Source: a virus
Taxonomy: Duplodnaviria; Heunggongvirae; Uroviricota; Caudoviricetes
Virus record (IMG/VR): IMGVR_UViG_3300029033_000135
Length of the DNA stretch: 30,187 nt
Direction: 5' to 3' (one strand)
Below the pieces are notes generated by a model that was not told where the DNA came from, made no database searches, and was given only the letters and a program-made list of their open reading frames with translations. Positions 2,943 to 24,977 of the stretch are shown here, piece by piece. The position numbers and the translations under genes are program-made. Each line of letters starts with the position of its first letter. The stretch's first letter is position 1.

Positions 2943-2953
2943 TATCTTACTCC

Positions 2954-5771: not shown

Positions 5772-5773
5772 CA

Positions 5774-6484
5774 TTAATAATAATCGATCGTATTTTTGAT
5801 GGTGTAAACCCGTTCGACGGCGGGTTTTACTCCTTCATCAACAATGATTAGCTGACAGTCCACCGGATTAGCGTGACTGTCATATTCACAGCTCTGTTTT
5901 ACATTACCAACCCGTTGATTATTCAGTAAAGTAACCGCTGTGTAATCTAATTTTTTGATCGGATCCGTTGATGGCGTGGCGCTGACAGATAATGTTTTGT
6001 CGTTACTTTTCGTGGTTTTACCCAGCGGATAACCCTGATCATCATAGCGATATTCCATCTGCATTTGTTTGCTGCTGGCTTTAATCACGAAGCCATTATC
6101 ATCGGTTTCCCAACTCACCCCGGCAGAAGGTAATTCTGCTAGCTGGCATTTTCCCTGTAAACGTACTCTCTTCTCCAGCGTCTCGGCATCACGGTAATAA
6201 TTGGCGTCCAGTACCAGAGCGACCACGGTATTATTTTCCAGATCCAGTAATTCGAGTGAATCAAAACAGCCTTCTTCCGACAAAGTCCCAGAAACACGTT
6301 TCGTCACTTCACCTTGCTCATCCATTAATGTCTGAGTGAAATCTTTTACCGGACCACGCAGCGGATCAAAATCGAATTCATTAGAGAAACTGGCCATCTC
6401 AGGGGTAAATGAAAGTGTTACCTCTGTGCGGTCACATCCTGTGAGGAATATCGCGAGTAAGCATGGTAGTAATTTGTATTTCAC
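5774..6484 (-). CDS. ynfC: Lipoprotein YnfC (UPF0257)
   Basis: Lipobox LLAIFLTGC after a short signal sequence. Start set at the GTG at 6484 giving M-KYKLLPC; the upstream ATG at 6520 adds 12 residues absent from the remembered protein. Confidence 0.8.
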   Translation of the reverse strand: MKYKLLPCLLAIFLTGCDRTEVTLSFTPEMASFSNEFDFDPLRGPVKDFTQTLMDEQGEVTKRVSGTLSEEGCFDSLELLDLENNTVVALVLDANYYRDAETLEKRVRLQGKCQLAELPSAGVSWETDDNGFVIKASSKQMQMEYRYDDQGYPLGKTTKSNDKTLSVSATPSTDPIKKLDYTAVTLLNNQRVGNVKQSCEYDSHANPVDCQLIIVDEGVKPAVERVYTIKNTIDYY

Positions 6485-6591
6485 AACAGTCACCAGAGAG
6501 TAGAGATGATTCTCAATCATAGTAGCAAATACAGTACTTTACACGTTAAATGCTATGCTTAAAGAAGTTATCTTCGCGTAAGGAGCTTATG

Positions 6592-6897
6592 ATGAAACTC
6601 TCAACCTGCTGTGCCGCGCTTCTGCTCGCCCTCGCCTCACCCGTGGTACTCGCCGCGCCGGGATCCTGTGAGCGCATACAGAGCGATATATCACAGCGCA
6701 TTATCAATAATGGCGTACCCGAAAGCAGCTTCACGTTAAGTATTGTACCCAATGACCAGGTTGATCAGCCTGATTCCCAGGTCGTCGGCCATTGCGCTAA
6801 TGATACGCATAAAATTCTCTATACCCGCACCACCAGCGGTAACGTCTCTGCTCCCGCGCAGTCTACCCAGGATGGCGCGCCTGCCGAACCGCAGTAA
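6592..6897 (+). CDS. ynfD: Secreted protein YnfD (DUF1161), signal peptide
   Basis: SD taaggag at 6579-6585 precedes the ATG at 6592; product MKLSTCCAALLLALASPVVLA... has a signal peptide. The ORF-track start at 6550 is rejected. Confidence 0.8.
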   Translation: MKLSTCCAALLLALASPVVLAAPGSCERIQSDISQRIINNGVPESSFTLSIVPNDQVDQPDSQVVGHCANDTHKILYTRTTSGNVSAPAQSTQDGAPAEPQ

Positions 6898-6914
6898 TAC
6901 ATTATCGACTGAAC

Positions 6915-6935
6915 GCCGGATACGACACATCCGGC
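6915..6935 (+). terminator. Stem-loop downstream of ynfD (gccggat-N7-atccggc), possible weak terminator or REP-like element
   Basis: 7-bp perfect inverted repeat 18 nt after the ynfD stop; only a short T tract (gattt) follows. Confidence 0.3.
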
Positions 6936-6982
6936 GATTTGAACATACAACATAATCCCACCTTATTACTCATACCCTTCTA

Positions 6983-6996
6983 TTGATATGGATTAA
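6983..6996 (+). promoter_or_regulatory. Putative FNR/CRP-family binding site upstream of ynfE (TTGAT-N4-ATTAA)
   Basis: One mismatch from the FNR consensus TTGAT-N4-ATCAA, about 100 bp upstream of the ynfE ATG in an AT-rich promoter region; the ynfEFGH operon is known to be anaerobically expressed. Confidence 0.4.
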
Positions 6997-7095
6997 TAAT
7001 TCTTAACCCAAAATGGGTAGACTCCCTCTATTGTTAGCGCGCTAAATATTCAATATATAAACATTTATATAACGATAAAGAACAGGGAGTGAGTT

Positions 7096-9522: not shown

Positions 9523-9579
9523 CCCACGACAACCATAAATTCTGGCATGACATTTTGTTTGAAAAGCAATAAGTGAGTA

Positions 9580-12006
9580 ATGATGAAAATCCATACCACA
9601 GAGGCGCTCATGAAGGCTGAAATCAGCCGTAGAAGTCTGATGAAAACCTCCGCACTTGGCAGTCTTGCGCTGGCAAGCAGTGCTTTCACTCTGCCATTTT
9701 CCCAAATGGTCCGGGCGGCAGAGGCTCCGGTAGAAGAGAAAGCGGTCTGGAGTTCCTGCACCGTTAACTGCGGGAGCCGCTGTCTGTTACGTTTGCATGT
9801 GAAAGATGACACCGTGTACTGGGTGGAGTCTGATACGACAGGTGACGACGTCTACGGTAACCATCAGGTTCGAGCGTGTTTACGCGGGCGCTCTATCCGC
9901 CGACGGATGAATCATCCTGATAGGTTGAAATATCCCATGAAGCGCGTCGGCAAGCGCGGTGAAGGTAAATTTGAACGGATAAGTTGGGACGAAGCCCTGG
10001 ATACCATCAGTGATAATCTTCGGCGGATCCTGAAAGATTACGGCAATGAGGCTGTACATGTCCTGTACGGAACAGGCGTAGATGGCGGAAACATCACCAA
10101 CTCAAACGTCCCGTACCGTCTGATGAACTCTTGCGGTGGTTTTCTCAGTCGCTATGGCAGCTACAGTACCGCACAGATCAGTGCCGCAATGAGTTATATG
10201 TTCGGTGCCAATGATGGCAACAGCCCGGATGATATCGCCAATACGAAACTGGTCGTTATGTTCGGAAATAACCCGGCAGAAACGCGGATGAGCGGCGGTG
10301 GTGTCACTTACTACGTCGAGCAAGCCCGCGAACGTTCAAACGCACGCATGATCGTCATCGATCCACGTTATAACGACACTGCTGCCGGGCGTGAAGATGA
10401 ATGGCTGCCCATTCGCCCTGGCACCGATGGCGCACTGGCCTGTGCGATTGCCTGGGTACTGATTACTGAAAACATGGTCGATCAGCCATTTCTCGACAAA
10501 TATTGTGTTGGTTACGATGAAAAAACGCTGCCCGCCAACGCACCACGTAACGCGCATTATAAAGCCTATATTCTGGGCGAAGGGCCTGACGGCATAGCTA
10601 AAACGCCGGAATGGGCAGCAAAAATCACCAGCATCCCGGCAGAAAAAATTATCCAGTTGGCACGAGAGATCGGTTCAGCAAAACCTGCTTATATTTGTCA
10701 GGGTTGGGGGCCACAACGACATTCCAACGGCGAGCAAACGTCCCGCGCTATTGCCATGCTTTCCGTTCTCACCGGTAACGTCGGCATAAACGGCGGCAAC
10801 TCAGGTGTACGCGAAGGTAGCTGGGATCTGGGGGTAGAATGGTTCCCGATGCTTGAGAATCCTGTTAAAACGCAGATTTCCGTCTTTACATGGACAGATG
10901 CCATCGACCATGGTACGGAAATGACCGCGACCCGTGATGGTGTTCGTGGAAAAGAAAAACTGGATGTCCCCATCAAGTTTTTATGGTGCTACGCCAGTAA
11001 CACATTGATCAATCAACATGGCGACATCAATCACACCCATGAGGTGCTTCAGGATGACAGCAAGTGCGAGATGATTGTTGGCATTGACCACTTCATGACG
11101 GCCTCGGCTAAGTATTGCGATATCCTGTTGCCCGACCTGATGCCAACAGAGCAAGAAGACCTTATCTCTCATGAATCTGCAGGGAATATGGGCTATGTGA
11201 TCCTCGCCCAACCCGCAACCTCAGCAAAATTTGAACGCAAACCCATCTACTGGATGCTGAGTGAAGTCGCCAAACGCTTAGGACCAGACGTTTATCAAAC
11301 CTTTACTGAAGGTCGCAGTCAGCATGAATGGATCAAATATCTCCATGCGAAAACGAAGGAACGTAACCCTGAGATGCCCGACTACGAGGAGATGAAAACG
11401 ACCGGGATCTTTAAGAAAAAATGCCCGGAAGAACACTACGTCGCTTTCCGCGCATTCCGTGAAGATCCACAGGCAAACCCGTTGAAAACACCTTCGGGGA
11501 AAATCGAAATTTATTCTGAACGACTGGCGAAGATTGCAGATACCTGGGAATTGAAAAAAGATGAAATTATTCATCCCCTTCCTGCGTATACCCCAGGTTT
11601 TGATGGCTGGGACGATCCCCTGCGGAAAACCTATCCACTGCAGTTAACGGGCTTCCACTACAAGGCGCGTACCCACTCCAGCTACGGCAATATTGATGTG
11701 TTACAGCAGGCCTGCCCACAAGAGGTGTGGATCAACCCCATTGATGCTCAGGCTCGCGGTATCCGTCATGGCGATACCGTGCGGGTATTTAACAATAATG
11801 GAGAAATGCTGATTGCCGCAAAAGTGACTCCGCGTATTCTGCCTGGCGTTACCGCCATCGGGCAAGGTGCGTGGCTTAAAGCGGATATGTTTGGTGACCG
11901 GGTCGATCACGGCGGCAGTATCAATATTCTGACCTCTCACCGCCCTTCACCGCTGGCAAAGGGAAACCCGTCGCACAGCAATCTTGTCCAGATCGAAAAG
12001 GTTTAA
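9580..12006 (+). CDS. ynfF: Tat-exported molybdopterin oxidoreductase YnfF (tandem paralog of YnfE)
   Basis: 808-aa ORF with Tat motif (SRRSLMKTS) and Cys cluster (CTVNCGSRCLLRLHV); collinear with YnfE along its whole length. The second Met at 9583 is an alternative start. Confidence 0.95.
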   Translation: MMKIHTTEALMKAEISRRSLMKTSALGSLALASSAFTLPFSQMVRAAEAPVEEKAVWSSCTVNCGSRCLLRLHVKDDTVYWVESDTTGDDVYGNHQVRACLRGRSIRRRMNHPDRLKYPMKRVGKRGEGKFERISWDEALDTISDNLRRILKDYGNEAVHVLYGTGVDGGNITNSNVPYRLMNSCGGFLSRYGSYSTAQISAAMSYMFGANDGNSPDDIANTKLVVMFGNNPAETRMSGGGVTYYVEQARERSNARMIVIDPRYNDTAAGREDEWLPIRPGTDGALACAIAWVLITENMVDQPFLDKYCVGYDEKTLPANAPRNAHYKAYILGEGPDGIAKTPEWAAKITSIPAEKIIQLAREIGSAKPAYICQGWGPQRHSNGEQTSRAIAMLSVLTGNVGINGGNSGVREGSWDLGVEWFPMLENPVKTQISVFTWTDAIDHGTEMTATRDGVRGKEKLDVPIKFLWCYASNTLINQHGDINHTHEVLQDDSKCEMIVGIDHFMTASAKYCDILLPDLMPTEQEDLISHESAGNMGYVILAQPATSAKFERKPIYWMLSEVAKRLGPDVYQTFTEGRSQHEWIKYLHAKTKERNPEMPDYEEMKTTGIFKKKCPEEHYVAFRAFREDPQANPLKTPSGKIEIYSERLAKIADTWELKKDEIIHPLPAYTPGFDGWDDPLRKTYPLQLTGFHYKARTHSSYGNIDVLQQACPQEVWINPIDAQARGIRHGDTVRVFNNNGEMLIAAKVTPRILPGVTAIGQGAWLKADMFGDRVDHGGSINILTSHRPSPLAKGNPSHSNLVQIEKV

Positions 12007-12016
12007 AGAGTAGCCC

Positions 12017-12130
12017 ATGACCACACAATATGGATTTTTTATCGATTCCAGCCGCTGTACTGGCTGTAAAACCTGCGAACTGGCGTGCAAAGATTTTAAA
12101 GTTGGTTACGTATCGTTTAAAATCAATTAG
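12017..12130 (+). pseudogene. ynfG: 5' fragment of ynfG (Fe-S subunit), truncated after codon 28 at the junction with the inserted element
   Basis: ATG at 12017 encodes MTTQYGFFIDSSRCTGCKTCELACKDFK, identical to the remembered YnfG N-terminus including the first ferredoxin Cys motif. From 12101 it diverges (VGYVSFKIN) and stops at 12128-12130. Confidence 0.8.
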
Positions 12131-12174
12131 ATAGCCCGTCATTTCTGCGCTCACACGTCCCAACATTGAAAAAC

Positions 12175-12208
12175 ATGCAAAGCTTTGTAAGCCGATGCAA
12201 AGCTTTGT
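12175..12208. promoter_or_regulatory. Two copies of a 14-bp repeat (atgcaaagctttgt), each containing the perfect 10-bp palindrome CAAAGCTTTG, 20 bp centre to centre
   Basis: Direct observation: copies at 12175-12188 and 12195-12208, about 75 bp inside the junction. Operator-like geometry for a dimeric DNA-binding protein. Confidence 0.4.
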
Positions 12209-12354
12209 GTGTCTCACTTTTGTCCCAATACCAATCCGAATCCACCCTTTGTCATCATTGAGAAATGGCAAGGAAGAAAAGGATGTTACTGCACGATTTG
12301 ACAAATCCGCCAGAGCTATCGCATATTGACCGCACTGAACAAATAAGCGGTCAT

Positions 12355-12382
12355 CCGCACCCGATAGCTTTGCGGCTTTTTT
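12355..12382 (+). terminator. Weak stem-loop plus T tract upstream of the HNH gene
   Basis: ccgca-N11-tgcgg followed by cttttttattt; short stem and large loop, so weak. Confidence 0.3.
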
Positions 12383-12400
12383 ATTTATATCGGGCTTCTC

Positions 12401-12838
12401 ATGAAAAACCTTTTAAATAATTTTCTTGACAATTGCATTGAAAATATTTTACCAAAAGATGATTTTGGTTATGGGCGTCTTTTAATCGGCTCAAAGGGTA
12501 AACGTATTAAAACTGGCGCGCATAGGTTAATTTACCGAATTTTTATTGGAGAAATTCCTGCGGGCATGGTTGTCAGGCATTCTTGCGATAATCCTGCATG
12601 TTGTAATCCAAAGCATTTACTAATAGGAACAATCCTTGATAATAATGCTGATCGACAGAAACGAAAACGCCAAGCACGTCATGAAAAACATGGGCGAGCA
12701 AAACTAACTAAAGAGCAAGTGCTATTTATAAGAGCTAATGAAATGAGTATACCAAATTCAGTTCTTGCAGATAAATACAGGGTCTCCAATAGCTTAATAT
12801 GGCAAATAAAAAACTATCGCATTTGGAATGAATTGTAA
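12401..12838 (+). CDS. HNH homing-type endonuclease
   Basis: 145 aa; HNH_3-like core AHRLIYRIFIGEIPAGMVVRHSCDNPACCNPKHLLIGT followed by a basic tail. Confidence 0.8.
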   Translation: MKNLLNNFLDNCIENILPKDDFGYGRLLIGSKGKRIKTGAHRLIYRIFIGEIPAGMVVRHSCDNPACCNPKHLLIGTILDNNADRQKRKRQARHEKHGRAKLTKEQVLFIRANEMSIPNSVLADKYRVSNSLIWQIKNYRIWNEL

Positions 12839-12916
12839 CCACGCTGTTGACGACAGCATCCAATAGTGACTATACTCCGCGCCGAGACCTCGAAAACCTC
12901 CCAAAAGCGGATTAAG

Positions 12917-12943
12917 CCAACCCCGTCAGTGTTGGATTTTTTA
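12917..12943 (+). terminator. Putative intrinsic terminator after the HNH gene
   Basis: ccaac-N9-gttgg stem followed by atttttta, about 80 nt after the HNH stop. Confidence 0.45.
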
Positions 12944-13118
12944 TGCCTGTCATTCAGTGATGGCACAATGTGCGGTCACATCCCCGATCCATGTCGGGAG
13001 GGCGACGAATACAACACCCGCAAGGGGAATAAGTCCGCGGTATCTTTTGGGCCGTTTCGAGCCTCCCGGCACCACATTTTGTGGTGGCATTTCTCGAAAA
13101 AAGCCAAAGGAGGTCATC

Positions 13119-13736
13119 ATGACCACTCAACTCATCCCTGTGTTTGAAGGTACAATCTCAAATGAACCTACGCTTCTGGTGAACGCGCGTGATTTGCATG
13201 GGTTTTTAGAGGTAGGTAAAGATTTTTCTAACTGGATACGGGCCAGGCTAAACGAGTATGGATTCGTAGAAAATTTAGACTACATTCTATTTTCGCCAAA
13301 TTTGGCGAAAACTCTAGGCCGCCGCCGCAAGGACTACCACCTCACCCTGGACACAGCCAAAGAGCTTGCGATGGTTGAACGAAACGAAAAAGGCCGCCAG
13401 ATCCGCCGCTACTTCATCGAGTGCGAAAAGAAACTTCGCAACATTCAGCCAGTACAAGCAGAATCACAGCCACAATTTACCGCCGAGGAAATCATCCTCC
13501 TTTGCTACATGCAACTCTGGATGGAAAAAGCCCAGGACCTTAGCAAGCAGCTGTACCCCATAATGAAAGAGCTGAACTCCTCATACACGAACAAGCTGTA
13601 TGACATTGCGTTTGAGACTATCTACATGGTGACGAAGAACAGAGACGCGNNNNNNNNNNNNNCGTCTCGACATGTCAAGTTCCGTTATCCAGCGGGCCAT
13701 GCCAATGCTGAAAAGCCTGCGGGCAAGACAATTTGA
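13119..13736 (+). CDS. Phage antirepressor-like protein (ORF6N / P22 AR N-terminal type domain); C-terminus uncertain because of the assembly gap
   Basis: Strong SD aaggaggt (13107-13114) before the ATG at 13119. N-terminal domain PVFEGT..LLVNARDLHGFLEVGKDFSNWIRARLNEYGFVENLDY is typical of ORF6N/antirepressor domains. A 14-N gap at 13649-13662 makes the downstream frame and stop (13736 or 13743) unknown. Confidence 0.7.
   Translation: MTTQLIPVFEGTISNEPTLLVNARDLHGFLEVGKDFSNWIRARLNEYGFVENLDYILFSPNLAKTLGRRRKDYHLTLDTAKELAMVERNEKGRQIRRYFIECEKKLRNIQPVQAESQPQFTAEEIILLCYMQLWMEKAQDLSKQLYPIMKELNSSYTNKLYDIAFETIYMVTKNRDAXXXXXSRHVKFRYPAGHANAEKPAGKTI
13649..13662. other. Run of 14 N (assembly gap or masked bases) inside the antirepressor gene
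   Basis: Direct observation; flanked by GAGACG (13641-13646) and its reverse complement CGTCTC (13663-13668). Confidence 0.95.
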
Positions 13737-13939: not shown

Positions 13940-15166
13940 ATGCCGGTAACTATAACAAAAATCAGAACTGGAGAAGATGTTTTGTCAGCAGCCATTCACC
14001 GCATTGAATGGTTGTTTGAAACATTCTCTTCTGTATGTTTATCTTTTTCTGGCGGTAAAGATTCCACTGTACTTTTCCATCTTGTAGCCGAAGTGGCCTA
14101 CAGGAAGAAACGTCGTTTTTCTGTATTGTTCATTGACTGGGAAGCCCAGTATCAATGCACCATTGATCATATACAGAAGATGCGGATGATGTACCAAGAT
14201 GTAACAGATACCTTTTACTGGGTTGCACTTCCCCTGACGACAGTAAATGGTGTCTCGCAGTTTCAGCCTGAGTGGATATGCTGGGAGCCCGGTGTAGAGT
14301 GGGTTCGACAGCCACCGGAAGATGCTATTACTGATATGGCGTATTTCCCCTTTTACCGCTACGCCATGACTTTTGAAGAATTTGTCCCAGCTTTTTCTTC
14401 CTGGTTCGCAAGTAACCAATGTAGCGTGGCAATACTGACTGGAGTCCGCGCGGATGAATCTCTTAACAGATTTATGGGACTGGTTTCCCAACGAAAACTG
14501 AGATATGCAGATGATAAACCCTGGACCACGGCGTCACCTGAAGGTTTTTACTACACCATGTATCCGCTGTATGACTGGAAAACCAACGATATCTGGGTAT
14601 ATAACGCTAAAACCTGTGCAATCTACAATCCTCTGTATGATTTGATGTACCGTGCAGGCATTCCTCTACGTAATATGCGTGTCTGTGAGCCTTTTGGCCC
14701 GGAACAGCGTAAGGGACTATGGCTTTATCATGTTCTGGAGCCAGAAACTTGGGCACGGATGTGTGAACGAGTATCTGGTGCTGCCAGTGGGGCTCTTTAT
14801 GCCAATGAAAGCGGGGCCTATTTTGCCCTGCGTAAACGGATGTCAAAACCATCCCATCATACCTGGCGCAGCTATGCGTTCTTCCTGCTGGACGTAATGC
14901 CGGAAAGAACGGCTGAACACTACCGCAACAAGATAGCAGTCTACCTGCGCTGGTATCAGAACCGGGGATTCCCGGATGATATCCCGGATGAACAGGAAAA
15001 TGATCTGGGCTGCCGGGATGTTCCCTCCTGGCGACGTATTTGTAAGACTCTCATAAAGAATGATTTCTGGTGCCGAACGCTCTCCTTCAGCCCCAACAAA
15101 CCCCGGCACTATGAACGTTACCTGCAGCGTATGAATGAAAGGAGGAAGGAATGGGGAATTCTGTGA
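13940..15166 (+). CDS. ibrA: PAPS-reductase-like PP-loop ATP pyrophosphatase (IbrA-like)
   Basis: 408 aa; PP-loop motif SFSGGKDS at residues 34-41 (nt 14039-14062), with a long C-terminal extension. A TTG at 13985 with GGAG upstream is an alternative start. The ibrA assignment is from memory of the IbrA/IbrB regulator family. Confidence 0.7.
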   Translation: MPVTITKIRTGEDVLSAAIHRIEWLFETFSSVCLSFSGGKDSTVLFHLVAEVAYRKKRRFSVLFIDWEAQYQCTIDHIQKMRMMYQDVTDTFYWVALPLTTVNGVSQFQPEWICWEPGVEWVRQPPEDAITDMAYFPFYRYAMTFEEFVPAFSSWFASNQCSVAILTGVRADESLNRFMGLVSQRKLRYADDKPWTTASPEGFYYTMYPLYDWKTNDIWVYNAKTCAIYNPLYDLMYRAGIPLRNMRVCEPFGPEQRKGLWLYHVLEPETWARMCERVSGAASGALYANESGAYFALRKRMSKPSHHTWRSYAFFLLDVMPERTAEHYRNKIAVYLRWYQNRGFPDDIPDEQENDLGCRDVPSWRRICKTLIKNDFWCRTLSFSPNKPRHYERYLQRMNERRKEWGIL

Positions 15167-15795
15167 CACCAGAGGTGGAGGTGCTGAGCAAGATGATTCG
15201 ACAGTACTTCAGTCAGGAACAATCTGAAGAGAAAACCATACAGGCCCTGAACCATCTCCGCTGCGTACTCCATGAGATCAGCCCCTTTGCTCAAGAACCA
15301 GTGGACTGTGTGCTGTGGGTAAAAGCGGATGAAATTGTCGCTAACGATTATAATCCCAATGTCATGGCCCCAAGCGAAAAAAAATTACTGAAACAATCTC
15401 TGGAAAAAGACGGTTTTACTCAACCAATTGTTGTTTCGGAAGAAACAAGCCATTACCTGGTGGTGGATGGTTTTCATAGGCAGTTACTAGGTAGAAGAAC
15501 AGTTACTGGAAAACGCCTGAAAGGCTGGCTACCAGTAACCTGTATTAATCCAGACCGAAAGGGACAAACCTCACGTATTGCCGCGACTATCCGACATAAC
15601 AGAGCCAGGGGGAAACACCAGATAACCTCAATGTCTGATATTGTCAGAGATCTTTCACGTCTTGGCTGGACTGATGAACGTATCGGAACAGAACTGGGGA
15701 TGGACCAGGATGAAGTTCTGAGGTTAAAGCAGATTAGCGGGCTAACGGAGTTATTTCAGCAGGCAGATTTCAGCCCTGCATGGACTGTTACATAA
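15151..15795 (+). CDS. ibrB: ParB/Srx-like nuclease-domain protein with C-terminal HTH (IbrB-like)
   Basis: 214 aa; ParB/sulfiredoxin-fold motif LVVDGFHRQ and a C-terminal HTH-like segment (TDERIGTELGMDQDEVLRLKQISGL). Its start overlaps the upstream stop by 16 nt and has the SD aaaggaggaagga. Confidence 0.7.
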   Translation: MGNSVTPEVEVLSKMIRQYFSQEQSEEKTIQALNHLRCVLHEISPFAQEPVDCVLWVKADEIVANDYNPNVMAPSEKKLLKQSLEKDGFTQPIVVSEETSHYLVVDGFHRQLLGRRTVTGKRLKGWLPVTCINPDRKGQTSRIAATIRHNRARGKHQITSMSDIVRDLSRLGWTDERIGTELGMDQDEVLRLKQISGLTELFQQADFSPAWTVT

Positions 15796-15883: not shown

Positions 15884-16408
15884 CTACCTCAGATCACCTA
15901 ATAATATATCAAGATTATTTTGCGCATTAATGCTATTCGCCATTACTGTTGCTGCTTCTGGCAACTTTCCAAGAGCAATAAATATATTCTTAAGGCTGAT
16001 TGGAATTGATGAACCATGCGGATCGCGCCACTCACCGCAAATTCTGTGAGTTTCATCACAAAGCCTGAACGCATCCCAACCTCCATATTGACCAAAAATT
16101 ATGTCCATTGACTCTATTTCTGCGGGCGATAACTCCCCCAGCTCATCAACAGAAGAAAATGTACGCCACATTTCAACCTTATGATCCGCTACATCAGATA
16201 TCCATGATTCCCACGGACTGTACTCGTTTTCACTTCCATCCTTAACCAAAGAATATGTCTGCGATAAAACGGGTCCTTTGTTCATAGAGAAATAATGATC
16301 ACCACTAATGGGAAAACCATACAACTCCATTGCTTTGCGGTCAGAGAGATACATCAGCTTAATGAAACGCATAGATCCGCCATGTTTTTTCAGCAAATAC
16401 GCTGCCAT
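15884..16408 (-). CDS. Phage-associated GepA-like protein (DUF4065 / Panacea antitoxin-type domain), no adjacent toxin gene
   Basis: 174 aa; N-terminus MAAYLLKKHGGSMRFIKLMYLSDRKAMELYGFPISGDHYFSMNKGPVLS fits my recollection of the DUF4065/GepA family N-terminus. It stands alone with 150 bp of spacer upstream. Confidence 0.6.
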   Translation of the reverse strand: MAAYLLKKHGGSMRFIKLMYLSDRKAMELYGFPISGDHYFSMNKGPVLSQTYSLVKDGSENEYSPWESWISDVADHKVEMWRTFSSVDELGELSPAEIESMDIIFGQYGGWDAFRLCDETHRICGEWRDPHGSSIPISLKNIFIALGKLPEAATVMANSINAQNNLDILLGDLR

Positions 16409-16558: not shown

Positions 16559-19500
16559 TTAATCCACTCCCACTTTTTTGTTGTACTCGCGGTTAAAGCG
16601 ATCCACGGCAACCTTCATATCCCGCTCTACCGATTTCACCATCGCCGCCTGCTGCGCCAGACTGAGAGAACTGTCGGCATAAATGGCATCGCGCTGTTTG
16701 CGCAAATCCTTCAGTCTCTTCCGGGTATCCTGCATAAGCCCGTTCATCAACAATTTTCCGTTGTTCTCGTCAATGAACGCCGTTCTTTCTGCACCGGTCA
16801 GACTCTTCAGCTCTGCGTGATACTGCGCAACCTCTGTCATCCGGTCGTACATCTTCTGCTGGTCTGCATACGGCATCACCTCACCCGAAATTTTCCCCAG
16901 GAAGGGCACCTGCTGCTCCGGTATATCAATACCGTTCAGCGATTTCACCGCCGCATCTGTGGTTTTGGAAATGAAGCGCCCTGTCCCTCCGGAGATATAG
17001 TCAATCCAGAATTTCAGCGATTCCGGTGTGATATCCACCGCGCCGGGACGATACTGGCTGCCACCTGAGAACGCATTCAGCCAGGATGCAAACGCCTTGT
17101 ACGCCTCAGGCGTTGAACGTCTGCCCAGCTGGCTGTCCGGTTTCGGTGTGCCAAATGGCATGTTCTCCTGGTAAATCTGCGCCCCCATGAAGTTTTCATT
17201 CATGGCAAGGTTCGCAAACGGACGCAGAATGGTCGGCGCTGCATTTTTCAGCAATGCCCCGGACAGTGTTTCCGACGTTTCACTGCCCACAGGACTGAAT
17301 GCCCCCAGGATACCACCGACAACATTACCGGCAGCACGTGAAGCAGTCAGGTCGCCCGCTGCCACACCTTCAGCAGTATGCCCGAGCAGGAAGAAAACGT
17401 TGTACCCGTAAGGCAGAGGAATACTCCAGTACTCTCCGGCCTTGCCCCCGAACACCGATTTCATAATGACGAGGTTACGCTCTTTCACATGAGACGGCAC
17501 CTTGTCATACCAGTTAACCCCGTCATCATCCTCCCCCGCAACACTGCGGTTAAGCGAGCCAAGCAGATAACCCGCTCCCACAGCTGCAAGCGCGATTTTC
17601 TGCGGTACATTGAGATTCTTCCAGCGAAGGCGCTCCGGTAACGGCCCGTCGCCATTAAGATGTCCGAGCGTTCTCACCAGGTTTGCGGTCCCCTGAATGC
17701 TGGCGTTGGCAAACATATACAGCGAGTTCATCAGCGCTCCCTGCTCACCACGACGGTTAAAGTTCACCGTCATGTTTTTGGCAAGAGATGCCGCCTGCTG
17801 GCGTGACAAACCGGCATCACGGGCGTGTTTATAGGCAGAAAGACGCAGAGCGTTTTCAACCGCGCCGTTGGCATCCTCGACCAGGTTCAGGAACGAATGC
17901 CATGCACCGATACTCTGGCCTTTCCATCCTCCCTTCGCCAGCGATACAAGGCGATCCATTTCCTTCTGCTGGCCTTCAAGGTCACCCATGTTAAACCAGC
18001 CGGTTTTACCTCCGTCCTCAACAAACTCTTTCCACACCTTCTGCCACTGCGCACCGTTGCCCGTGAGGGTTTTACCACGCAGACTGGCGTATACGGCAGA
18101 CATGGCAGACCGGCTGTCTTTCACCACAGCCAGGGCGGATAAGTTATCCAGCCCTTTCAGTTTACCGTCGCTCCTTCCCTGCTCCGCCTTCAGGTTCATC
18201 ACCGCCGTCTGCACGTCACGGATGAAGTTACTGACCAGGAATTCCGGGTTATACGACGTGTTCACCGTTGCCAGGAAGCGGTTAACTTTCCCCAGCGTGC
18301 GGATTACGGCGTTACTGGTTTCCGGTCCCATATTCTTCATCGCACGCATCAGGCGCGGATCATGGAGTTTGATGTAGTACGTTTTGCCGTTCTTTTTGGT
18401 GGTGAAGTACCGGTCTGCCATCATTGCCATCGGTACAGGACGTTCGACAACTTCGTGACGGGTTTCACCGGTTTCCGGAACAACACGCTCTGCAATCGCA
18501 CGCATGGTGTCCGGTCGCTCATTGGTGAATACCTGCCAGTAATCCTTGTCTGGATTATCCTGTACCAGTTTCAGGAAGGCGTTACCTACTTCATTTTTGC
18601 GATTGCGGATCAGCGATTCGCTCAAGTCCTGTATCGCCTGAGTGGACGGAGACTGTGCGCGGGATGCACGCCCCATGGCCTGCCTGCTTTCACGTCCGCC
18701 GATAGTGAAGCCTTTACCTGTACGGGGCAGTGACACCACACCGTCAACATCCTGGCCTTTCAGAGGAACGTAGTAACGGTAGGCGTTCTGCCAGGCATCC
18801 ACCACACCGCTCTCTTCCAGTCCGGCCTCACGGATAAGCTCACGGCGACGGGCCAGCATATCGTCAACAATCCCTGCCAGACGGTCATACTGTGCCTGTT
18901 TGCCACTGTTACGCACACGCTGCATGATTTCCGCCGCTTCCGCGTTGGTCATCCCCGAACCGCCGTCCGGCATTTTCGGGTTGATTTTCGCGATATGCGC
19001 GTTACGTTCCGGCGCGTGACGGGCGTAGAGGTACTCATCCAGATCGGCCTGCGCAATTTTGTAGTCCGCCAGTAATTTAGCCAGCGGCTGAACATAGCGC
19101 TCCTTCATCACGTTCAGGTCGTTTTCCGCCTTCCCGTGGAAGAGTTCTTCCGCCATATAAGCGTTGTTACTGTCGTCTATTTTTCCGCCAGTTTTACGGA
19201 TATTCTCCTGAACAGCTTTCAGCACCTGGAATTTATCCTGCATCTGGCGCACAAAACGCGATGCAATTGTCTCTTCCGGTGTCAGACTGCTGGTACGGGA
19301 GTAATGCGGCCCCTTGCGAATATCTTCAGGATAGAGTATTTTATCCGCAGAGCCGCGATAAGAATGTTCCCCTTTGGGCAATTGGAGCCCTCTGTGCAGA
19401 AGGTTATCGCGGCTTAATTTTTCTCTCCGGTACAACGTTAACCCGGTCATTTCCATACTCTTCAGTTTTTTTCCATTTTCTGTACCGTAAACAGAAGCTA

Positions 19501-22500
19501 CCTTGTTGATTTCCAGACGCGACCGGACAGCCTTCATGTGTACCGCTGACACCACCGGATCACCATTTTTATCCACGGCATCAAGCAGCATCACAACCGC
19601 ATTTCTTTCTGTCGCTGAGTGGTAAATTGCATCCGGATCGTGCATCAGTTCCGGTAGTCTCTCGATAACATCCATCGGCACCACATGTTTCACACCATTG
19701 GTGGCCTTACGCACAGTGTCGCGGGAGATAACCAGCGGCAAATCTGGTGCGCCAAGGTGACGCAATACCGGCGGCGTACGCCCGATGTTTACCGTTAAAT
19801 CCGTTGAGCGCAGAGACTTCATCATTCTGGCAAGGTCATCACGATAACGCTCGCCCTCACCTTCCGGCACTTTGAACGGATCAGGCTTACCGCTACGGGA
19901 GTACTGAGACGATGCGCCAGCGCCATCCTCACGCGGCGTGTAACCTTCCCGCACACGCTGGCCTAACGTGCGAATAGTTTCGCGAACAAGTCTGATATCG
20001 TTCAGCTCTGTCGGCTTCAGTAACCCCGTGCGACGCAGTACCCCTTTGACCAGGGCAACAACACGCTCCCACGCCGCCACAAATTTATTCGGCTGTTTCT
20101 CCGCCATATGTGCCAGAAATTCACCCGCCTGCACTTCCGGTGATTCCTTACCATAAGACGCATCAACCTTACGCCAGGCTTCACGGATGGTGGCGTTATC
20201 ACTGTCACGGGTTTTCAGCACGGTCTTAATAATCGTCTGATATTCCGCTGGCGTGACTACATGCTCCATTGCATGGTGGATAATCTCGTGACGCAGCTTC
20301 TCGCGAACGGTCCGCCCGTCAGGAATGTTATCCGCCACCAGGACAATTTCACGTTTATCCGGACGATAGAACGCATGCACCCTGCCGTAACCGTCGAACG
20401 ATTCACCCGCCAGCGCTTCAGCCTCTTTCTGTGACTTCACCACGCGGACCTTCAGGTCACTGTCCTTAATGCCACTCATCACGCCACGGGCAACCGCTTC
20501 AACCTGCGGGACCGGGCTGCCTTTGGCTTCCGCACTGCGGTTAACATCCGAAATGAGATTGCCTTCAGGTGTGCGGGTCACGCCCTTACGGGAATAAAAC
20601 GCAACGCCCTTGTCCGTCTCACGGGTTTTCAGCGTACTGAACAGGTGATCGAATGCATCACGAATACCGCCATCCAGTTCCGCATTCGTCGGATAAGCCC
20701 AGGTGTTATCTGTGTTGTGCTCAGGTGCCTTACGGATATTGACCAGATAATCATTCTCCACGCCAGCCGTACGCGCTTTATCCTGAACATAACGCTCAAA
20801 GGCACGCGCCGCCATTTCAACATCCGTTGACCAGTACGGTTTTGAGCGCACCTCATCGAGAAGCGCTGAACGACGCGGCATGTCACTGCTGTTGATCGCT
20901 TTCATCACGCCTTTAAACGCGTCGTAAACCTCCTGACGTACCGGATATTCCGCATCAACATATCTGCCGTCTTTAAATACGCGCCCGGCACGCTGTGCTT
21001 CCGTCATATAGTCGCCACCTGACGTGATCTTCCCGTCAGTGGAAACATCATAACGACCAAAATAATTATCCAGTGAATGGAACCATTCGTGGGCCAGCGC
21101 CCCCGGTCCGTTACCTTTTGTCAGGTTGATTGCCACCTCACCCGGCTCATAGTGTGCCGCCGCCTTACCCTTACCACGGGCACCAAAAGCAAGCCCAAGA
21201 CGACCGTTCAGAGAAAGCGCTTTTGTCGGCACGTTCAGCACATCAGCCAGGTCATGCAGCGAGTCATAAGCCCGGTTCAAATCAGCCTGACGACGCGGAC
21301 CTTCCACATAATTACCAAACTGCACACCACGAAAACCAAACGCATCACTGAACTGCTCCGGCGAAACATCCCCCTTGCGGCGTTCTGGTCCGGTACGATC
21401 GCGGTTGGTGGCGTTACGCTGCTCCTCACGCGAAATCTCCCGCATCTCCTTCACATGACGAACAAGCTCATCACGATGTGAATCAATGTACTTACGCGCA
21501 TCACTGGCTGACTTAAAGCCACCTCTCACCCGCATTTTGTTTTTGCCATAAGCGATAAAAATATCGCCACTGCGGGTATTCCGGTAAACGTCAAAGCGGA
21601 TTTTGTCATCCGGTGACGGTGCCGTTTTTTCATCTCCTTTCGCCTGTGACTTTTCCTCCAGCTCTGCAAACCAGACTTTCGCCTTTGTCAGTAATTCATC
21701 CCTGCTTTCCGAGAAAAAGAGGTTAGTCCCCTTATTGTCCTTATTGCGCAGTGAATAAAGTTTCTGTGGCGGATCGTAACGCTTCCCTCCTGCCGCCTGA
21801 TACACACCCGATACCACCCGATAAGCAGAAGCCTTGTCCATCTGTGAGGGTGGCAGAGTGCGTAACAGTTGCCAGGTATCCGCGTAACGGGAGGGCATTC
21901 TGCCTTCCATCCATTCTGCGAGGCGTTTCGCGCTGACCGTTCCGTTCAGCATTTCCGATACACTGTGTCGTACTTTTTTTACGCTCTCCCCCCAGCCAGC
22001 CGTATTGTGTTTCGTCTTCGCCGGAATATCGCTACGATACAGCGCTATCATTGCCAGGGTGTCAGCATCAGCCCCTTCGCTCGCCAGTTTTGCGTAGTCC
22101 GGTTTCGGGAACAGTTTGCTCAGCGGCTGCGTGGCATAATCCCTGTCTTCCAGCGTTTTACCCAGTGTTTCAGCAAGCTGTGCATAACGGTGTTTGGCTG
22201 CCCCTTTAATTTCCTCGCCAAAGTCTTCAATTTTTTTGCCCCTGACTTCACCTCCGCGCACAGTAGCTTCCCTGTCAGTAGAGACAGTTGTTTCAGATTC
22301 AGGTGCGATTGTCTCAGGCTGCGGGATGTCACGATTTCCTCCGGCCTGTCGACGTACTTCTGCCTGCTGTGCGAGCTCAGGCAATGAGTTACGAACAGTT
22401 CGGGGAAGCTGATCAGGCTGAGGCATACGGACATTGTGTGTAATGTCCGGAGCCGGTAGACCTTCACGTACCAGCGCTGTGGCGTTCTGCTCATCCGGTG

Positions 22501-24940
22501 ACGGCAGACCACGACGAACTGTTTCGCCCTCCAGTATTTCCCCCTGGCGACCAGCGGCGTTTTCCGGTGCCGGAGCACGTCCTTTCTGGAAACTCTGGCC
22601 CTTAACCTCACCGGTTGTGGTAAAACGACCACCACGTCCGGCCTGATTCTCATCCGGCGTACGCGCCACCTCTCCCGGTAACGGATATCCCTGTCCGGGA
22701 TGAATATCGCCGGGGGCGGGCAGACGCGGACGCTCAGTTAACTCCTGTGCTGTCGGACCGGCATCACCTTCAGCCATCTGGGAATGCACCAGTTCTTCCG
22801 CCGTCGGCGCGTTGCCACGGGCAAGACGGGCCTGCACTTCTGTATCATCCCCCGTAAAACCACGGAATCGCGGGTCACGCATGAACGCGGGCTGTTCCAT
22901 CGGATCAGCATCAGTAATACGCTCTCCGTCAGCCAGAGTGTTAATGGTCTCCGTTGCCACATCTTCAGAGAACGCAGGATTATCCATTTCAACGGCATAC
23001 TGATTCTCGCCTTTCTTCACTACGGACGGTTTCAGGCCGGTGGCGCTGGCATTGCGGAAAACGTCGCTCCCCAGAGCACTTTTTTCATCCGTGAAATAAC
23101 GGTTGTCCGGACGCACCTTTTCAATGCGTTCTGCTGGTCTGGACGCACCACTCCCGTTAATTTCAATACGAACTTCATCCGGATCGCGGAACCGCACCGT
23201 CGGGTAAATACTCCCGTCGCCATCATCCGCATTTTCCGGCTGTGGCTGTGCCTCCGGTCTGGCCTCCTGCTGAGGGCGAAGCACATCACGGATAGCCTGT
23301 AACTGCTGCTCTTCAGTATCAGTACGCCCTTCCTTCAGGCTGAGTTTTCGGTATTCCTCAAGCAGTTCAGGGCGCGGCTTCGCCTTCAGCTCATCCATTA
23401 CCGCCTGTCGCTTCGCCTGTTCATCCAGTTCATTCAACAGCTGGCTGGCGGCTTCCCGGCGATGAACGGCAGACGTGTCTTCCTCATGTGCCATATCCGC
23501 ATCAGCATACTGTTCCAGAAGCTGCTCGCGATTCATCCCCTGCATGGATTCACGATGCTGTGCCACCGGATCAACCGGTTCGGGTTGCGGAGCCGATTCG
23601 TCCTGAGGAACGCTTTCAGCCTCACGCATGGCGGTTTCTTCTGCGGCATGACGTCTGCCACGATATCCGGCAACCGCACCGAATGGTGCCCCCATCGCAG
23701 CACCAAGGGCTGCACCTTCGATCGTTGCGTCAGCCACGCCCTCCCCCGGTGACACATCCATTCCGGCGGTCTCACGCAATGCCGTGTTTTCCTGATAGCG
23801 TGAATAGCCACCCTGCGCCGCATTAATCGTCCCCTGTTCCGTGGCATTTCTGACAATGCCGCTTTTAACGGTCTTCGCCGTGCCCCGCATCGCCAGATTA
23901 AGCAACTGAGCATCGCCCAGTTTTGCCGCCATGGCATTCACAGCCAGCAATTCAGGATCTGTTGCCAGCTGCGCGCGCACCTCATCGGCAACACGCTCTT
24001 TTGCCAGATCCATTTTCTGGCGATCAGTAAGCTGTGCGTGCTGCGGATCTGCATCAATTGACAAAAACGTCTGCTGAAATTTCGGGGACTTCGCCAGCTC
24101 AGAGTAATCCGCGTTAAGAACAGAGTCTGCTGCTGCCATTGCACTCTGCCCCTGTGCGCTGGCTGAGGAATGGGTGATCAGGCCTGCCTGGAATAAATCC
24201 GGCATTTTTTTATCGACAGCTTCTGCTGCCAGTGCGGTAGCTCTTTCCGGCTGCATCCCTGCCGCAATGTATTTTTTCTCCAGCCCGGCGGTCAGCACTT
24301 TTCGCAGAGTGACTTCACCCAGCTTTTTAGTCACACCGCCTGCAACCATATCAGGTACAAGGGCACCAATCAGGTTTACGCCCTTCGCCACCCAGACCGC
24401 AGAATCATCATATCCTTCAGTCATCGGTGTATTCAGCGCCCGCTGCGCCCCCGGCGACATCTTGCCAGTCAGCCATTCATCCGAGGCTTTAGCGCCGCCA
24501 CTGACTGCCTTGCCTGTGACCTTCAGACCTTTACCGACAATATCAGTAACCGCATTTTTTCCATCAGGCAGAGTGTCGATGACCTCATCCGCCCCCTTGC
24601 TGCCACCGACAAAAATATCCTGAACAGTTGCGACTCCCGGCAGCCCCATACGGCTGAACTCATTTAAAATACGCGCCCCTGTTTTTACCGGGCTCTGAAT
24701 CATCGCATCACCGAGTCCACGGGCCATTTCCCCTGCCCCCCGGACGGACTGGGCGACACCTTTCCCCATAGTTGGCAATACATCGCCCAGGCTGAACGAC
24801 GTGCTGTTGTCCTTCCAGCGATTGGGATCGGAGAAAAACGCATCATAGCGGTCAGTCTCGCCCGGCTGCTGAATGTTCAGGCTGTTGCGGTTCTGGTTGC
24901 CAAATTGCGCTTCAGGGCGCTGTTCATCGGAATAAGCCAT
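16559..24940 (-). CDS. Giant 2793-aa multidomain protein with two HExxH motifs; polyvalent-protein-like, function unknown
   Basis: One uninterrupted ORF with SD ggag 8 nt before the ATG. Gly/Ala-rich N-terminal part; acidic Pro/Gln-rich low-complexity linker (about residues 430-900); HEWFH at residues 1284-1288 (nt 21077-21091); HEIIHHAMEH at 1551-1560 (nt 20276-20290 for HEIIH). No Walker A motif was found by eye. Confidence 0.8.
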   Translation of the reverse strand: MAYSDEQRPEAQFGNQNRNSLNIQQPGETDRYDAFFSDPNRWKDNSTSFSLGDVLPTMGKGVAQSVRGAGEMARGLGDAMIQSPVKTGARILNEFSRMGLPGVATVQDIFVGGSKGADEVIDTLPDGKNAVTDIVGKGLKVTGKAVSGGAKASDEWLTGKMSPGAQRALNTPMTEGYDDSAVWVAKGVNLIGALVPDMVAGGVTKKLGEVTLRKVLTAGLEKKYIAAGMQPERATALAAEAVDKKMPDLFQAGLITHSSASAQGQSAMAAADSVLNADYSELAKSPKFQQTFLSIDADPQHAQLTDRQKMDLAKERVADEVRAQLATDPELLAVNAMAAKLGDAQLLNLAMRGTAKTVKSGIVRNATEQGTINAAQGGYSRYQENTALRETAGMDVSPGEGVADATIEGAALGAAMGAPFGAVAGYRGRRHAAEETAMREAESVPQDESAPQPEPVDPVAQHRESMQGMNREQLLEQYADADMAHEEDTSAVHRREAASQLLNELDEQAKRQAVMDELKAKPRPELLEEYRKLSLKEGRTDTEEQQLQAIRDVLRPQQEARPEAQPQPENADDGDGSIYPTVRFRDPDEVRIEINGSGASRPAERIEKVRPDNRYFTDEKSALGSDVFRNASATGLKPSVVKKGENQYAVEMDNPAFSEDVATETINTLADGERITDADPMEQPAFMRDPRFRGFTGDDTEVQARLARGNAPTAEELVHSQMAEGDAGPTAQELTERPRLPAPGDIHPGQGYPLPGEVARTPDENQAGRGGRFTTTGEVKGQSFQKGRAPAPENAAGRQGEILEGETVRRGLPSPDEQNATALVREGLPAPDITHNVRMPQPDQLPRTVRNSLPELAQQAEVRRQAGGNRDIPQPETIAPESETTVSTDREATVRGGEVRGKKIEDFGEEIKGAAKHRYAQLAETLGKTLEDRDYATQPLSKLFPKPDYAKLASEGADADTLAMIALYRSDIPAKTKHNTAGWGESVKKVRHSVSEMLNGTVSAKRLAEWMEGRMPSRYADTWQLLRTLPPSQMDKASAYRVVSGVYQAAGGKRYDPPQKLYSLRNKDNKGTNLFFSESRDELLTKAKVWFAELEEKSQAKGDEKTAPSPDDKIRFDVYRNTRSGDIFIAYGKNKMRVRGGFKSASDARKYIDSHRDELVRHVKEMREISREEQRNATNRDRTGPERRKGDVSPEQFSDAFGFRGVQFGNYVEGPRRQADLNRAYDSLHDLADVLNVPTKALSLNGRLGLAFGARGKGKAAAHYEPGEVAINLTKGNGPGALAHEWFHSLDNYFGRYDVSTDGKITSGGDYMTEAQRAGRVFKDGRYVDAEYPVRQEVYDAFKGVMKAINSSDMPRRSALLDEVRSKPYWSTDVEMAARAFERYVQDKARTAGVENDYLVNIRKAPEHNTDNTWAYPTNAELDGGIRDAFDHLFSTLKTRETDKGVAFYSRKGVTRTPEGNLISDVNRSAEAKGSPVPQVEAVARGVMSGIKDSDLKVRVVKSQKEAEALAGESFDGYGRVHAFYRPDKREIVLVADNIPDGRTVREKLRHEIIHHAMEHVVTPAEYQTIIKTVLKTRDSDNATIREAWRKVDASYGKESPEVQAGEFLAHMAEKQPNKFVAAWERVVALVKGVLRRTGLLKPTELNDIRLVRETIRTLGQRVREGYTPREDGAGASSQYSRSGKPDPFKVPEGEGERYRDDLARMMKSLRSTDLTVNIGRTPPVLRHLGAPDLPLVISRDTVRKATNGVKHVVPMDVIERLPELMHDPDAIYHSATERNAVVMLLDAVDKNGDPVVSAVHMKAVRSRLEINKVASVYGTENGKKLKSMEMTGLTLYRREKLSRDNLLHRGLQLPKGEHSYRGSADKILYPEDIRKGPHYSRTSSLTPEETIASRFVRQMQDKFQVLKAVQENIRKTGGKIDDSNNAYMAEELFHGKAENDLNVMKERYVQPLAKLLADYKIAQADLDEYLYARHAPERNAHIAKINPKMPDGGSGMTNAEAAEIMQRVRNSGKQAQYDRLAGIVDDMLARRRELIREAGLEESGVVDAWQNAYRYYVPLKGQDVDGVVSLPRTGKGFTIGGRESRQAMGRASRAQSPSTQAIQDLSESLIRNRKNEVGNAFLKLVQDNPDKDYWQVFTNERPDTMRAIAERVVPETGETRHEVVERPVPMAMMADRYFTTKKNGKTYYIKLHDPRLMRAMKNMGPETSNAVIRTLGKVNRFLATVNTSYNPEFLVSNFIRDVQTAVMNLKAEQGRSDGKLKGLDNLSALAVVKDSRSAMSAVYASLRGKTLTGNGAQWQKVWKEFVEDGGKTGWFNMGDLEGQQKEMDRLVSLAKGGWKGQSIGAWHSFLNLVEDANGAVENALRLSAYKHARDAGLSRQQAASLAKNMTVNFNRRGEQGALMNSLYMFANASIQGTANLVRTLGHLNGDGPLPERLRWKNLNVPQKIALAAVGAGYLLGSLNRSVAGEDDDGVNWYDKVPSHVKERNLVIMKSVFGGKAGEYWSIPLPYGYNVFFLLGHTAEGVAAGDLTASRAAGNVVGGILGAFSPVGSETSETLSGALLKNAAPTILRPFANLAMNENFMGAQIYQENMPFGTPKPDSQLGRRSTPEAYKAFASWLNAFSGGSQYRPGAVDITPESLKFWIDYISGGTGRFISKTTDAAVKSLNGIDIPEQQVPFLGKISGEVMPYADQQKMYDRMTEVAQYHAELKSLTGAERTAFIDENNGKLLMNGLMQDTRKRLKDLRKQRDAIYADSSLSLAQQAAMVKSVERDMKVAVDRFNREYNKKVGVD

Positions 24941-24951: not shown

Positions 24952-24977
24952 AAAAAAACCCGGCACAATGACCGGGT
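24952..24977 (-). terminator. Intrinsic terminator between the 421-aa gene and the giant ORF
   Basis: On the minus strand: acccgg-N8-ccgggt hairpin followed by seven U, immediately upstream of the giant ORF SD. Confidence 0.7.

Follow-up and report, generated by a model that had tools for sequence, protein, structure and literature searches.

A giant cysteine-free polyvalent protein of a short-tailed Stx-type prophage is a probable ejection protein carrying effector domains

The DNA analysed here, IMG/VR virus record IMGVR_UViG_3300029033_000135 (30,187 nucleotides [nt], hereafter the window), contains a short-tailed, Shiga toxin (Stx)-type (Sepvirinae-like), lambdoid prophage integrated next to ynfF. 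This study concerns a giant gene of the prophage, which encodes a protein of 2793 amino acids (aa). The evidence makes it likely that this product is an internal virion protein, made late, present at about 20 copies in the head and needed for infection, and that it is probably a podovirus ejection (pilot) protein carrying effector domains. Orthologues described in the literature are present in virions, are absent from the ordered capsid and tail density, and are essential while packaging is normal. For the window protein itself, the analysis established its orthology and operon position, mapped its domains and their folds, and showed that the catalytic motifs are conserved, that purifying selection acts on the gene and that the protein lacks cysteine (Cys).

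The giant gene is already known, given the described protein class to which it belongs, its RefSeq annotation, and the genetics and proteomics of its orthologues. New here are the location of both HExxH motifs in zincin-like domains, the ribonuclease (RNase)-like fold of MuF_C, a C-terminal core of ~914 aa and a run of five genes whose products lack Cys. Shiga toxin genes are spread by short-tailed Stx phages, and the giant protein and its four upstream neighbours are obvious candidates for the machinery that brings the phage DNA across the E. coli envelope; of these five cassette proteins, Sp5 cannot do without two, and four belong to the virion but have no place in the phi24B structure. The corrected domain map (two zincins, one uncatalogued in Pfam), the C-terminal module and the Cys-free signature should be useful to specialists.

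Orthologues of the giant protein are virion proteins required for infection

Two orthologues have been studied. ORF80 of Sp5 (ECs1242, Escherichia coli O157:H7 Sakai) also has 2793 aa, shares 95.4% protein identity and contains both HExxH motifs, and gp47 of phi24B (vb_24B_48) shares 94.5% protein identity with the window protein. The five-gene upstream cassette and the position at the end of the late operon are shared with both; in Sp5 the cassette, together with the giant gene, corresponds to ECs1237–ECs1242. Sp5 differs in its insertion site (ynfF here, the Sp5 locus in Sakai), its host strain and its downstream accessory genes, which in the window are Panacea, IbrAB and Ant genes.

An earlier note, made from the window sequence alone, had likened the giant protein to polyvalent proteins that are packaged and injected, and had proposed proteomics of phage particles as a check. 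For phi24B this has already been done: mass spectrometry of purified virions identified gp47 with 422 peptides and 93.6% coverage (10.64898/2026.04.10.717836, the source of all phi24B virion data below), which supports packaging. The copy number of gp47 was ~19–35 per virion, the protein is missing from the cryo-electron microscopy model, and the authors propose that it is an ejection protein. In addition, gp48, gp50 and gp51 are virion proteins without assigned density, with copy numbers given as 'ND', whereas gp49 (83 aa), with its low virion signal, was discounted as a 'bacteriocin' contaminant. In the window the gene for the 83-aa protein lies within the conserved Cys-free cassette between genes for virion proteins, and its product may belong to the virion after all, at low copy number or poorly detected.

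The phi24B structure also bears on whether the giant protein could be an external structural tail protein or a tape-measure-like ruler. Its great length, its largely helical C-terminus and its place in the tail region of the late operon would suit such a function, but the phage is short-tailed, the complete phi24B tail was modelled without gp47, and the protein carries enzyme-type domains. Moreover, homology of the whole protein to a tail or tape-measure family, which the earlier note regarded as decisive against its proposal, was found in neither Pfam nor PHROGs. A tail or ruler function is thus highly improbable.

Genetic data come from Sp5, in which Mondal et al. (PMC5155283) deleted 43 genes. 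The ΔORF80 and ΔORF79 mutants both gave 0 plaques and 0 lysogens and were both complemented in trans, and in both mutants the DNase-protected DNA was normal and the heads looked normal (PMC5155283). Deletion of ORF76, the counterpart of the 218-aa gene, strongly reduced infectivity (PMC5155283). Since the Sp5 orthologue is essential on plain K-12, these results indicated a core role in infection and not merely an accessory anti-defence role.

The giant gene is full length across its lineage and under purifying selection

The giant open reading frame (ORF) was confirmed as an uninterrupted minus-strand gene with an ATG start (Table 1), preceded at 5 nt by a GGAG Shine–Dalgarno sequence. Its DNA is identical (100%) to that of an E. 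coli EC2 gene (NZ_CP058571), for which the RefSeq annotation reads 'LPD38 domain-containing protein', and the PHROG 616 profile matches the protein over its full length. An ORF of 8.4 kb had been considered exceptional for a lambdoid prophage. However, each of the 186 phage records with a match contained a near-identical, full-length gene (94–95% DNA identity), and most of these records are of Stx-converting phages, P13374, PA2 and phi24B among them, so that the gene is ordinary in its lineage. A matching gene, mostly 90–95% identical, was also present in 427 of the 5426 complete E. coli genomes, and it was full length in 424 of 428 E. coli records. The occurrence in 186 phage records and 427 E. 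coli genomes indicated that the giant ORF is the rule in this lineage.

Comparison with the Sp5 orthologue gave a nonsynonymous to synonymous substitution rate ratio (dN/dS) of 0.116 overall and of at most 0.31 in every segment, indicating that the whole length is coding sequence under selection. The acidic linker was likewise under purifying selection (dN/dS = 0.127). The synonymous rate (dS) was 0.27–0.35 in the N-terminal third (22181–24940, aa 1–920) and 0.03–0.22 elsewhere. The N-terminal region is the part most diverged from Sp5, and variants of the N-terminal domain in E. coli fall to 76% identity. This pattern suggests a mosaic history for the N-terminal end of the gene.

Several small ORFs are annotated in the older records of phi191, Stx1-converting phage and Stx2 II, which could point to an assembly artefact or a decaying pseudogene. 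This reading is effectively refuted by the full-length gene in the phage and E. coli records, the 2793 aa found in Sakai as well, the low dN/dS and the peptides covering nearly all of the phi24B protein.

The phi24B GenBank entry (5149–13572, 2807–2811 aa) starts 14 codons upstream, with MPGHCAGFFYGVC-MAYS... as its N-terminus. This upstream start reads through the terminator-like hairpin and brings in the two Cys of that entry, which are its only ones. The true start seems to be the ATG behind the GGAG site, at which the gene begins in the window and in Sakai; in the part of the phi24B supplement that was searched, no N-terminal tryptic peptide of gp47 was found.

The giant protein and its upstream neighbours lack cysteine

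No Cys occurs in the 3663 residues of the giant protein and the 218-, 148-, 83- and 421-aa proteins encoded upstream; most other proteins of the same prophage contain 0.5–2.7% Cys. The same avoidance was seen in relatives, as 34 proteins with the LPD38 module, their variable N-terminal parts included, contain 2 Cys in 42,355 aa. Cys-free ejected proteins are gp15 and gp16 of T7, gp7, gp20 and gp16 of P22, and gp50 (3500 aa), gp51 and gp52 of N4, and most other virion proteins of these three phages contain Cys. A review that does not mention cysteine stresses the partly unfolded state in which ejection proteins pass a narrow channel and the oxidising periplasm that they then enter (PMC8954989). 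The Cys-free signature is circumstantial support for ejection and no proof of it, and freedom from Cys may be a usable predictor of ejected phage proteins.

In a distant metagenomic phage (locus 3386–14251), the LPD38 protein (1416 aa) contains 0 Cys and its 2181-aa upstream neighbour contains 2. The neighbour carries a motif resembling that of the second zincin described below (LFHEATHGGL ... EEMIAY ... LRKNGF), with a pairwise alignment that is not significant (expectation value [E] 0.96). This arrangement suggests that the functions of the giant protein may be split over two genes in that phage.

Domain organization of the giant protein

At least six domain units were distinguished in the giant protein (Table 1). 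LPD38, LPD5, LPD1 and MuF_C scored 164.6, 154.7, 82.5 and 63.8 bits, respectively, all above the Pfam gathering cut-offs of ~27 bits. These four domains belong to those of the polyvalent proteins defined by Iyer, Burroughs, Anand, de Souza and Aravind (2017; PMC5512222), so the class assignment made in the earlier note was upheld. The giant protein shares with this class its giant multidomain form, the LPD5, LPD1, MuF-C/PBECR, LPD38 and metallopeptidase-type domains, and a neighbourhood of virion genes.

The N-terminal region is Gly/Ala-rich, as described before, and a 460-aa query from it found homologues only in E. coli and Salmonella (61–100% identity), giving a shallow alignment. An uncharged run (aa 409–426) lies in its glycine-zipper-like stretch. 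The acidic linker that follows was also confirmed: Asp+Glu make up 19.0% (13.8% in the whole protein), Pro 8.8% (5.0%) and Gln 6.9% (4.3%), the net charge is –30, and Pfam gave no match even at E 10. The near-repeats attributed to the linker were less evident, since the string quoted for them (aa 810–832, nt 22445–22513) contains only a 7-residue near-repeat (RGLPSPD and EGLPAPD).

Two HExxH motifs had been located in the sequence, and their coordinates were exact, HEWFH lying at aa 1284–1288 and HEIIHHAMEH at aa 1551–1560 (nt 20261–20290). For a protein of this composition, ~0.05 such motifs are expected by chance. The domain with the first motif comes after LPD5, over which the AlphaFold2 model is confident; LPD5 and the first zincin-like domain (zincin 1) co-occur in many other, unrelated proteins, including stand-alone ones of ~500 aa. 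The NCBIfam profile CLCA_X (NF041907) matched aa 1182–1437 over profile positions 3–245 of 250 (E 1.7e-44), and this end-to-end match indicated that HEWFH and LPD1 are two halves of one zincin domain of ~250 aa. Residues H1284, E1285, H1288, D1291, E1375 and E1382 were at least 90% conserved among 47 sequences of 20–78% identity. Furthermore, the HExxH of this domain lies on a helix and is joined by another acidic ligand, and the fold is that of a zincin. CLCA_X zincins are phage- and plasmid-borne (Lenart et al., 2013, PMC3650047), and the family often occurs inside very long proteins. The score of 152 bits lies below the curated cut-off of 260, which makes zincin 1 a relative and not a member of the NCBI CLCA_X subfamily; the window motif is HExxHxxD, whereas the published consensus is HExxHxxxD (PMC3650047).

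When aa 1450–1700, which hold the second zincin-like domain (zincin 2), were searched against representatives at 50% identity, 392 clusters matched at E ≤ 1e-3; in most of them the domain is embedded in a protein of 1.4–6 thousand aa. Among 144 representatives, H1551 was conserved in 98%, E1552, H1555 and E1607 in 100%, and E1614 in 92%. The resulting motif, LRHExxHxGL ... AEExxAxxAE ... LRxxG, combines HExxH with a downstream Glu and is thus gluzincin-like. No Pfam model, the polyvalent MPTase model included, covers zincin 2, and a profile of the domain matched nothing below E 0.08 among PDB sequences. In the unassigned segments of the protein, Pfam at E up to 10 gave only weak glycine-zipper and Peptidase_M76 hints. 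By motif conservation and fold matches, both HExxH motifs, near-invariant in distant homologues, lie in conserved zincin-like domains with predicted peptidase activity.

The fold of the MuF_C domain matches RNase toxins of the RelE, BrnT and CdiA-CT types (RelE/BECR-like), and Iyer et al. described MuF-C as a PBECR RNase domain (PMC5512222). Judged from the model, MuF_C is RNase-like and a predicted RNase rather than a peptidase. The 'MuF-C metallopeptidase', proposed in the phi24B preprint as peptidoglycan-degrading, was examined and rejected, as the fold is RelE/BECR-like and the metallopeptidase signatures lie in the two other domains. A Foldseek search of the central model against the PDB gave no match below E 0.25, the weak top matches being anthrax lethal factor and RelE/HigB-type toxins, and a PDB sequence search with the whole giant protein gave nothing below E 0.5. 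The predicted zincin and BECR folds are compatible with roles against host defence or in takeover of the host.

The conserved C-terminal module, ~914 aa and mostly helical, far exceeds the 189-position LPD38 model that it contains, and no solved structural relative of it was found. In relatives, the module stays whole while the N-terminal domains before it are exchanged, with methyltransferase, ART, GGDEF and InPase domains among those found. A match to the LPD38 module was also found in the archaeal Methanosarcina virus MetMV (MK170447 40102–42492; 28% identity over 88% of the length, E 2e-82), an unexpectedly wide host range for this module.

Such swapping, the diversification of the N-terminal third among E. 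coli prophages and the class itself, whose domains are argued to act in phage–host conflict (PMC5512222), would fit a pure carrier of counter-defence functions in the manner of P1 DarB, dispensable for DNA delivery. A 'DarB-like antirestriction' family (PHROG 10089), like the giant protein a large packaged phage protein, matched at E 8.6e-30. However, this match is confined to aa 2354–2681 around LPD38, and the window protein has no methyltransferase or helicase domain. In addition, the Sp5 orthologue is essential on K-12 for phage obtained from K-12 lysogens, where restriction is not an issue, and the unrelated LPD38 protein of phage PTXU04 is likewise required for efficient infection. Polyvalent proteins were defined as conflict effectors, yet both this member and a second LPD38 protein are essential for infection; a purely counter-defensive function is unlikely. 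An anti-defence role may still hold for the central domains, besides the core role.

A proposed role in ejection and the points against it

We propose that the giant protein is made late and packed into the head at ~20 copies together with the 421-, 218- and 148-aa products and perhaps the 83-aa product. Once the phage has adsorbed, the protein would exit the head by way of the portal–tail channel, largely unfolded. The C-terminal module of ~914 aa, with LPD38, would provide the core function, either in packaging or as a conduit through the envelope, and the glycine-zipper stretches would interact with membranes. The enzymes delivered to the cell would come from the central part: LPD5, the two zincin-like metallopeptidase domains and the RelE/BECR-type RNase-like domain. 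Its working parts may arise through cleavage of the polypeptide by one or both zincins, a function that Iyer et al. assign to the peptidases of polyvalent proteins (PMC5512222). The steps of this scheme that we infer are entry into the cell by ejection, formation of a conduit, self-processing, RNase activity and any anti-defence role.

More tentatively, the five Cys-free genes could encode a distinct podovirus ejection apparatus without kinship, in sequence or fold, to those of T7 and P22. Conduit and enzymes would be combined in one ~300-kDa chain, which its own two zincins would cut after ejection, setting free the RNase-like domain. As a corollary, complete avoidance of Cys might be a general mark of tail-ejected phage proteins that is easy to compute. 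We regard this wider proposal as possible but doubtful.

Among known systems, N4 gp50 (3500 aa) resembles the giant protein in being giant and Cys-free, and its gene likewise closes the structural operon, behind genes for small virion proteins. N4 gp50 is a virion RNA polymerase that is packaged and injected. N4 is also a podophage with a capsid protein of the N4-gp56 family; in contrast, there is no sequence similarity between the two giant proteins and no polymerase domain in the window protein. The ejection proteins of T7 (gp14, gp15 and gp16) and P22 (gp7, gp20 and gp16) are internal proteins required for infectivity and not for DNA packaging (PMC8954989). Like the genes studied here, theirs form a contiguous cassette, and the orthologue data show the same combination of internal location, need for infectivity and independence of packaging for the protein studied here. 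The difference is that one ~300-kDa polypeptide stands here against three smaller ones in T7 and P22, and that it has no lytic transglycosylase domain.

Several points weigh against an ejection role. The virion and genetic data come from orthologues in other strains, entry into the host is for this family a step that we infer, and the peptidase and RNase activities are predictions. No peptidoglycan hydrolase was found in the giant protein: neither a lysozyme or transglycosylase nor an M15/M23 family came up in Pfam, NCBIfam or PHROGs. A strongly hydrophobic transmembrane helix was likewise not found (maximum Kyte–Doolittle 19-mer, 1.38). When the giant protein and the products of the five genes upstream were compared by BLASTP with the internal proteins of T7, P22 and N4, nothing matched, and no fold similarity to the ejection proteins of these phages was detected. 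Moreover, most gp47 spectra of stored phi24B virions came from the uppermost gel slices (the peptide table in the supplement is pooled over gel slices). The high molecular weight of this gp47 indicated that self-cleavage is at most partial before infection.

The remaining point comes from Sp5. The DNA-filled, normal-looking heads of the ΔORF80 and ΔORF79 mutants were not labelled by anti-tail-fibre antibody, and the authors inferred a role in tail assembly (PMC5155283). A simple view of the protein as a passenger inside the head fails to explain this lack of labelling in ΔORF80. The protein might instead be a tail-assembly factor that works inside the cell making the phage, perhaps by powering a step of tail formation as an AAA+ ATPase, without being ejected; the Sp5 authors cited a COG1483 (AAA+) match for ORF80 (PMC5155283). 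Against this stand the abundance of the protein in virions and the lack of any match to an ATPase family or fold. Neither GxxxxGK[ST] nor [AG]xxxxGK[ST] matched the giant protein, in agreement with the earlier note, which had reported no Walker A motif and judged a helicase or STAND-type NTPase unlikely. With no P-loop motif and no such family in Pfam or NCBIfam, the AAA+ suggestion was rejected, and a role restricted to tail assembly is rather improbable.

The prophage setting and the upstream cassette

On the strand of the giant gene, the upstream order begins with genes for an N4-gp56-family major capsid protein, an adaptor, a tail fibre and a tail-tip fibre, followed by lom and hok. The 133-, 218-, 148-, 83- and 421-aa genes come next and then the giant gene, downstream of which lie a Panacea-domain gene, IbrB/IbrA, antirepressor genes and ynfF. 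By this gene order, the late structural operon of the short-tailed prophage, which is of the Stx type, ends with the giant gene.

Table 1. Positions of the giant gene, of regions within its product and of the upstream cassette genes in the window
Feature	Residues (aa)	Position (nt)	Strand	Remarks
Giant ORF	2793 aa	16559..24940	minus	ATG start, 0 Cys, uninterrupted
N-terminal Gly/Ala-rich region	1–440	23621..24940	minus	Gly+Ala 26%
Glycine-zipper-like apolar stretch	406–433	23642–23725		weak Pfam Gly-zipper matches, E 0.01–0.05
Acidic Pro/Gln-rich linker	441–920 (approximate)	22181..23620	minus	by composition
LPD5	1051–1200	21341..21790	minus	Pfam PF18799, E 2.5e-45; alpha/beta fold
Zincin-like domain 1, CLCA_X-type	1182–1440	20621..21397	minus	HEWFH at nt 21077–21091
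LPD1	1361–1440			Pfam; C-terminal half of zincin 1
Zincin-like domain 2	~1470–1670	19931..20533	minus	HEIIH at nt 20276–20290; downstream Glu E1607
MuF_C (PBECR)	1750–1839 (Pfam)	19424..19693	minus	model domain aa ~1695–1832; region as a whole, nt 19424–19858
Conserved C-terminal module	~1880–2793	16562..19303	minus	~914 aa, mostly helical
LPD38	2476–2681	16898–17515		Pfam; inside C-terminal module
Terminator-like hairpin with T-run		24958..24977	minus	directly upstream of the giant-ORF start codon and GGAG
421-aa gene	421 aa	25009..26274	minus	0 Cys; PHROG 601; Sp5 ORF79/ECs1241, phi24B gp48
83-aa gene	83 aa	26285..26536	minus	0 Cys; glycine zipper (Pfam Gly-zipper_YMGG, E 1.6e-6); phi24B gp49
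148-aa gene	148 aa	26547..26993	minus	0 Cys; PHROG 596; phi24B gp50
218-aa gene	218 aa	26996..27652	minus	0 Cys; PHROG 611; Sp5 ORF76/ECs1238, phi24B gp51

The giant gene had been described as preceded by four small genes separated by terminators. Five genes were found between hok/lom and the giant ORF, and the last four are separated by gaps of 2–10 nt with no hairpins between them. Terminator-like hairpins on the strand of the giant gene occur only at 28551–28531, 27694–27675 and 24977–24958. The total of sites in the terminator scan was not above that in shuffled sequence, so the description 'terminator-separated' rests on these three individual hairpins only.

The 218-aa protein has a Gly-rich C-terminal stretch and a weak match to PHROG 8003 'virion structural protein', and the C-terminal stretch of the 83-aa protein is hydrophobic. 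Glycine-zipper-like stretches are common to the 83-aa protein, the 218-aa protein and aa 406–433 of the giant protein.

The giant gene was confirmed to be richer in G+C (0.547) than the lom/hok block (0.482 from the 133-aa gene to lom), and the downstream region has a G+C of 0.446. A separate origin of the giant gene had been suggested from this difference. However, the four genes directly upstream have the higher G+C as well (0.528) and belong with the giant gene to one conserved cassette; the part that resembles an insert is the lom/hok block, with its low G+C.

Downstream of the giant gene, the orphan GepA-like gene described earlier was recovered as a 174-aa SocA_Panacea gene (GepA-type, antitoxin-like; 15884–16408, minus; E 2.5e-19), and no co-directional ORF that could be its toxin adjoins it. 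Sp5 holds different genes at this position. An IbrA (PAPS-reductase-like) and IbrB (ParB-like) pair (13940–15795, plus) lies between the giant gene and the prophage end and adjoins the antirepressor genes. In the antirepressor region near the prophage end, the Rfam family sRNA-Xcc1 matched at 12993–13078 (plus) with 74.5 bits (gathering score 53). The host flank (1–12100) contains two intact ORFs of 808 aa and ynfE/ynfF type (7096–9522 and 9580–12006), whereas ynfE of EC2 is split by an island with its own integrase. This difference from EC2 in the host flank indicated that the window comes from a related but different genome.

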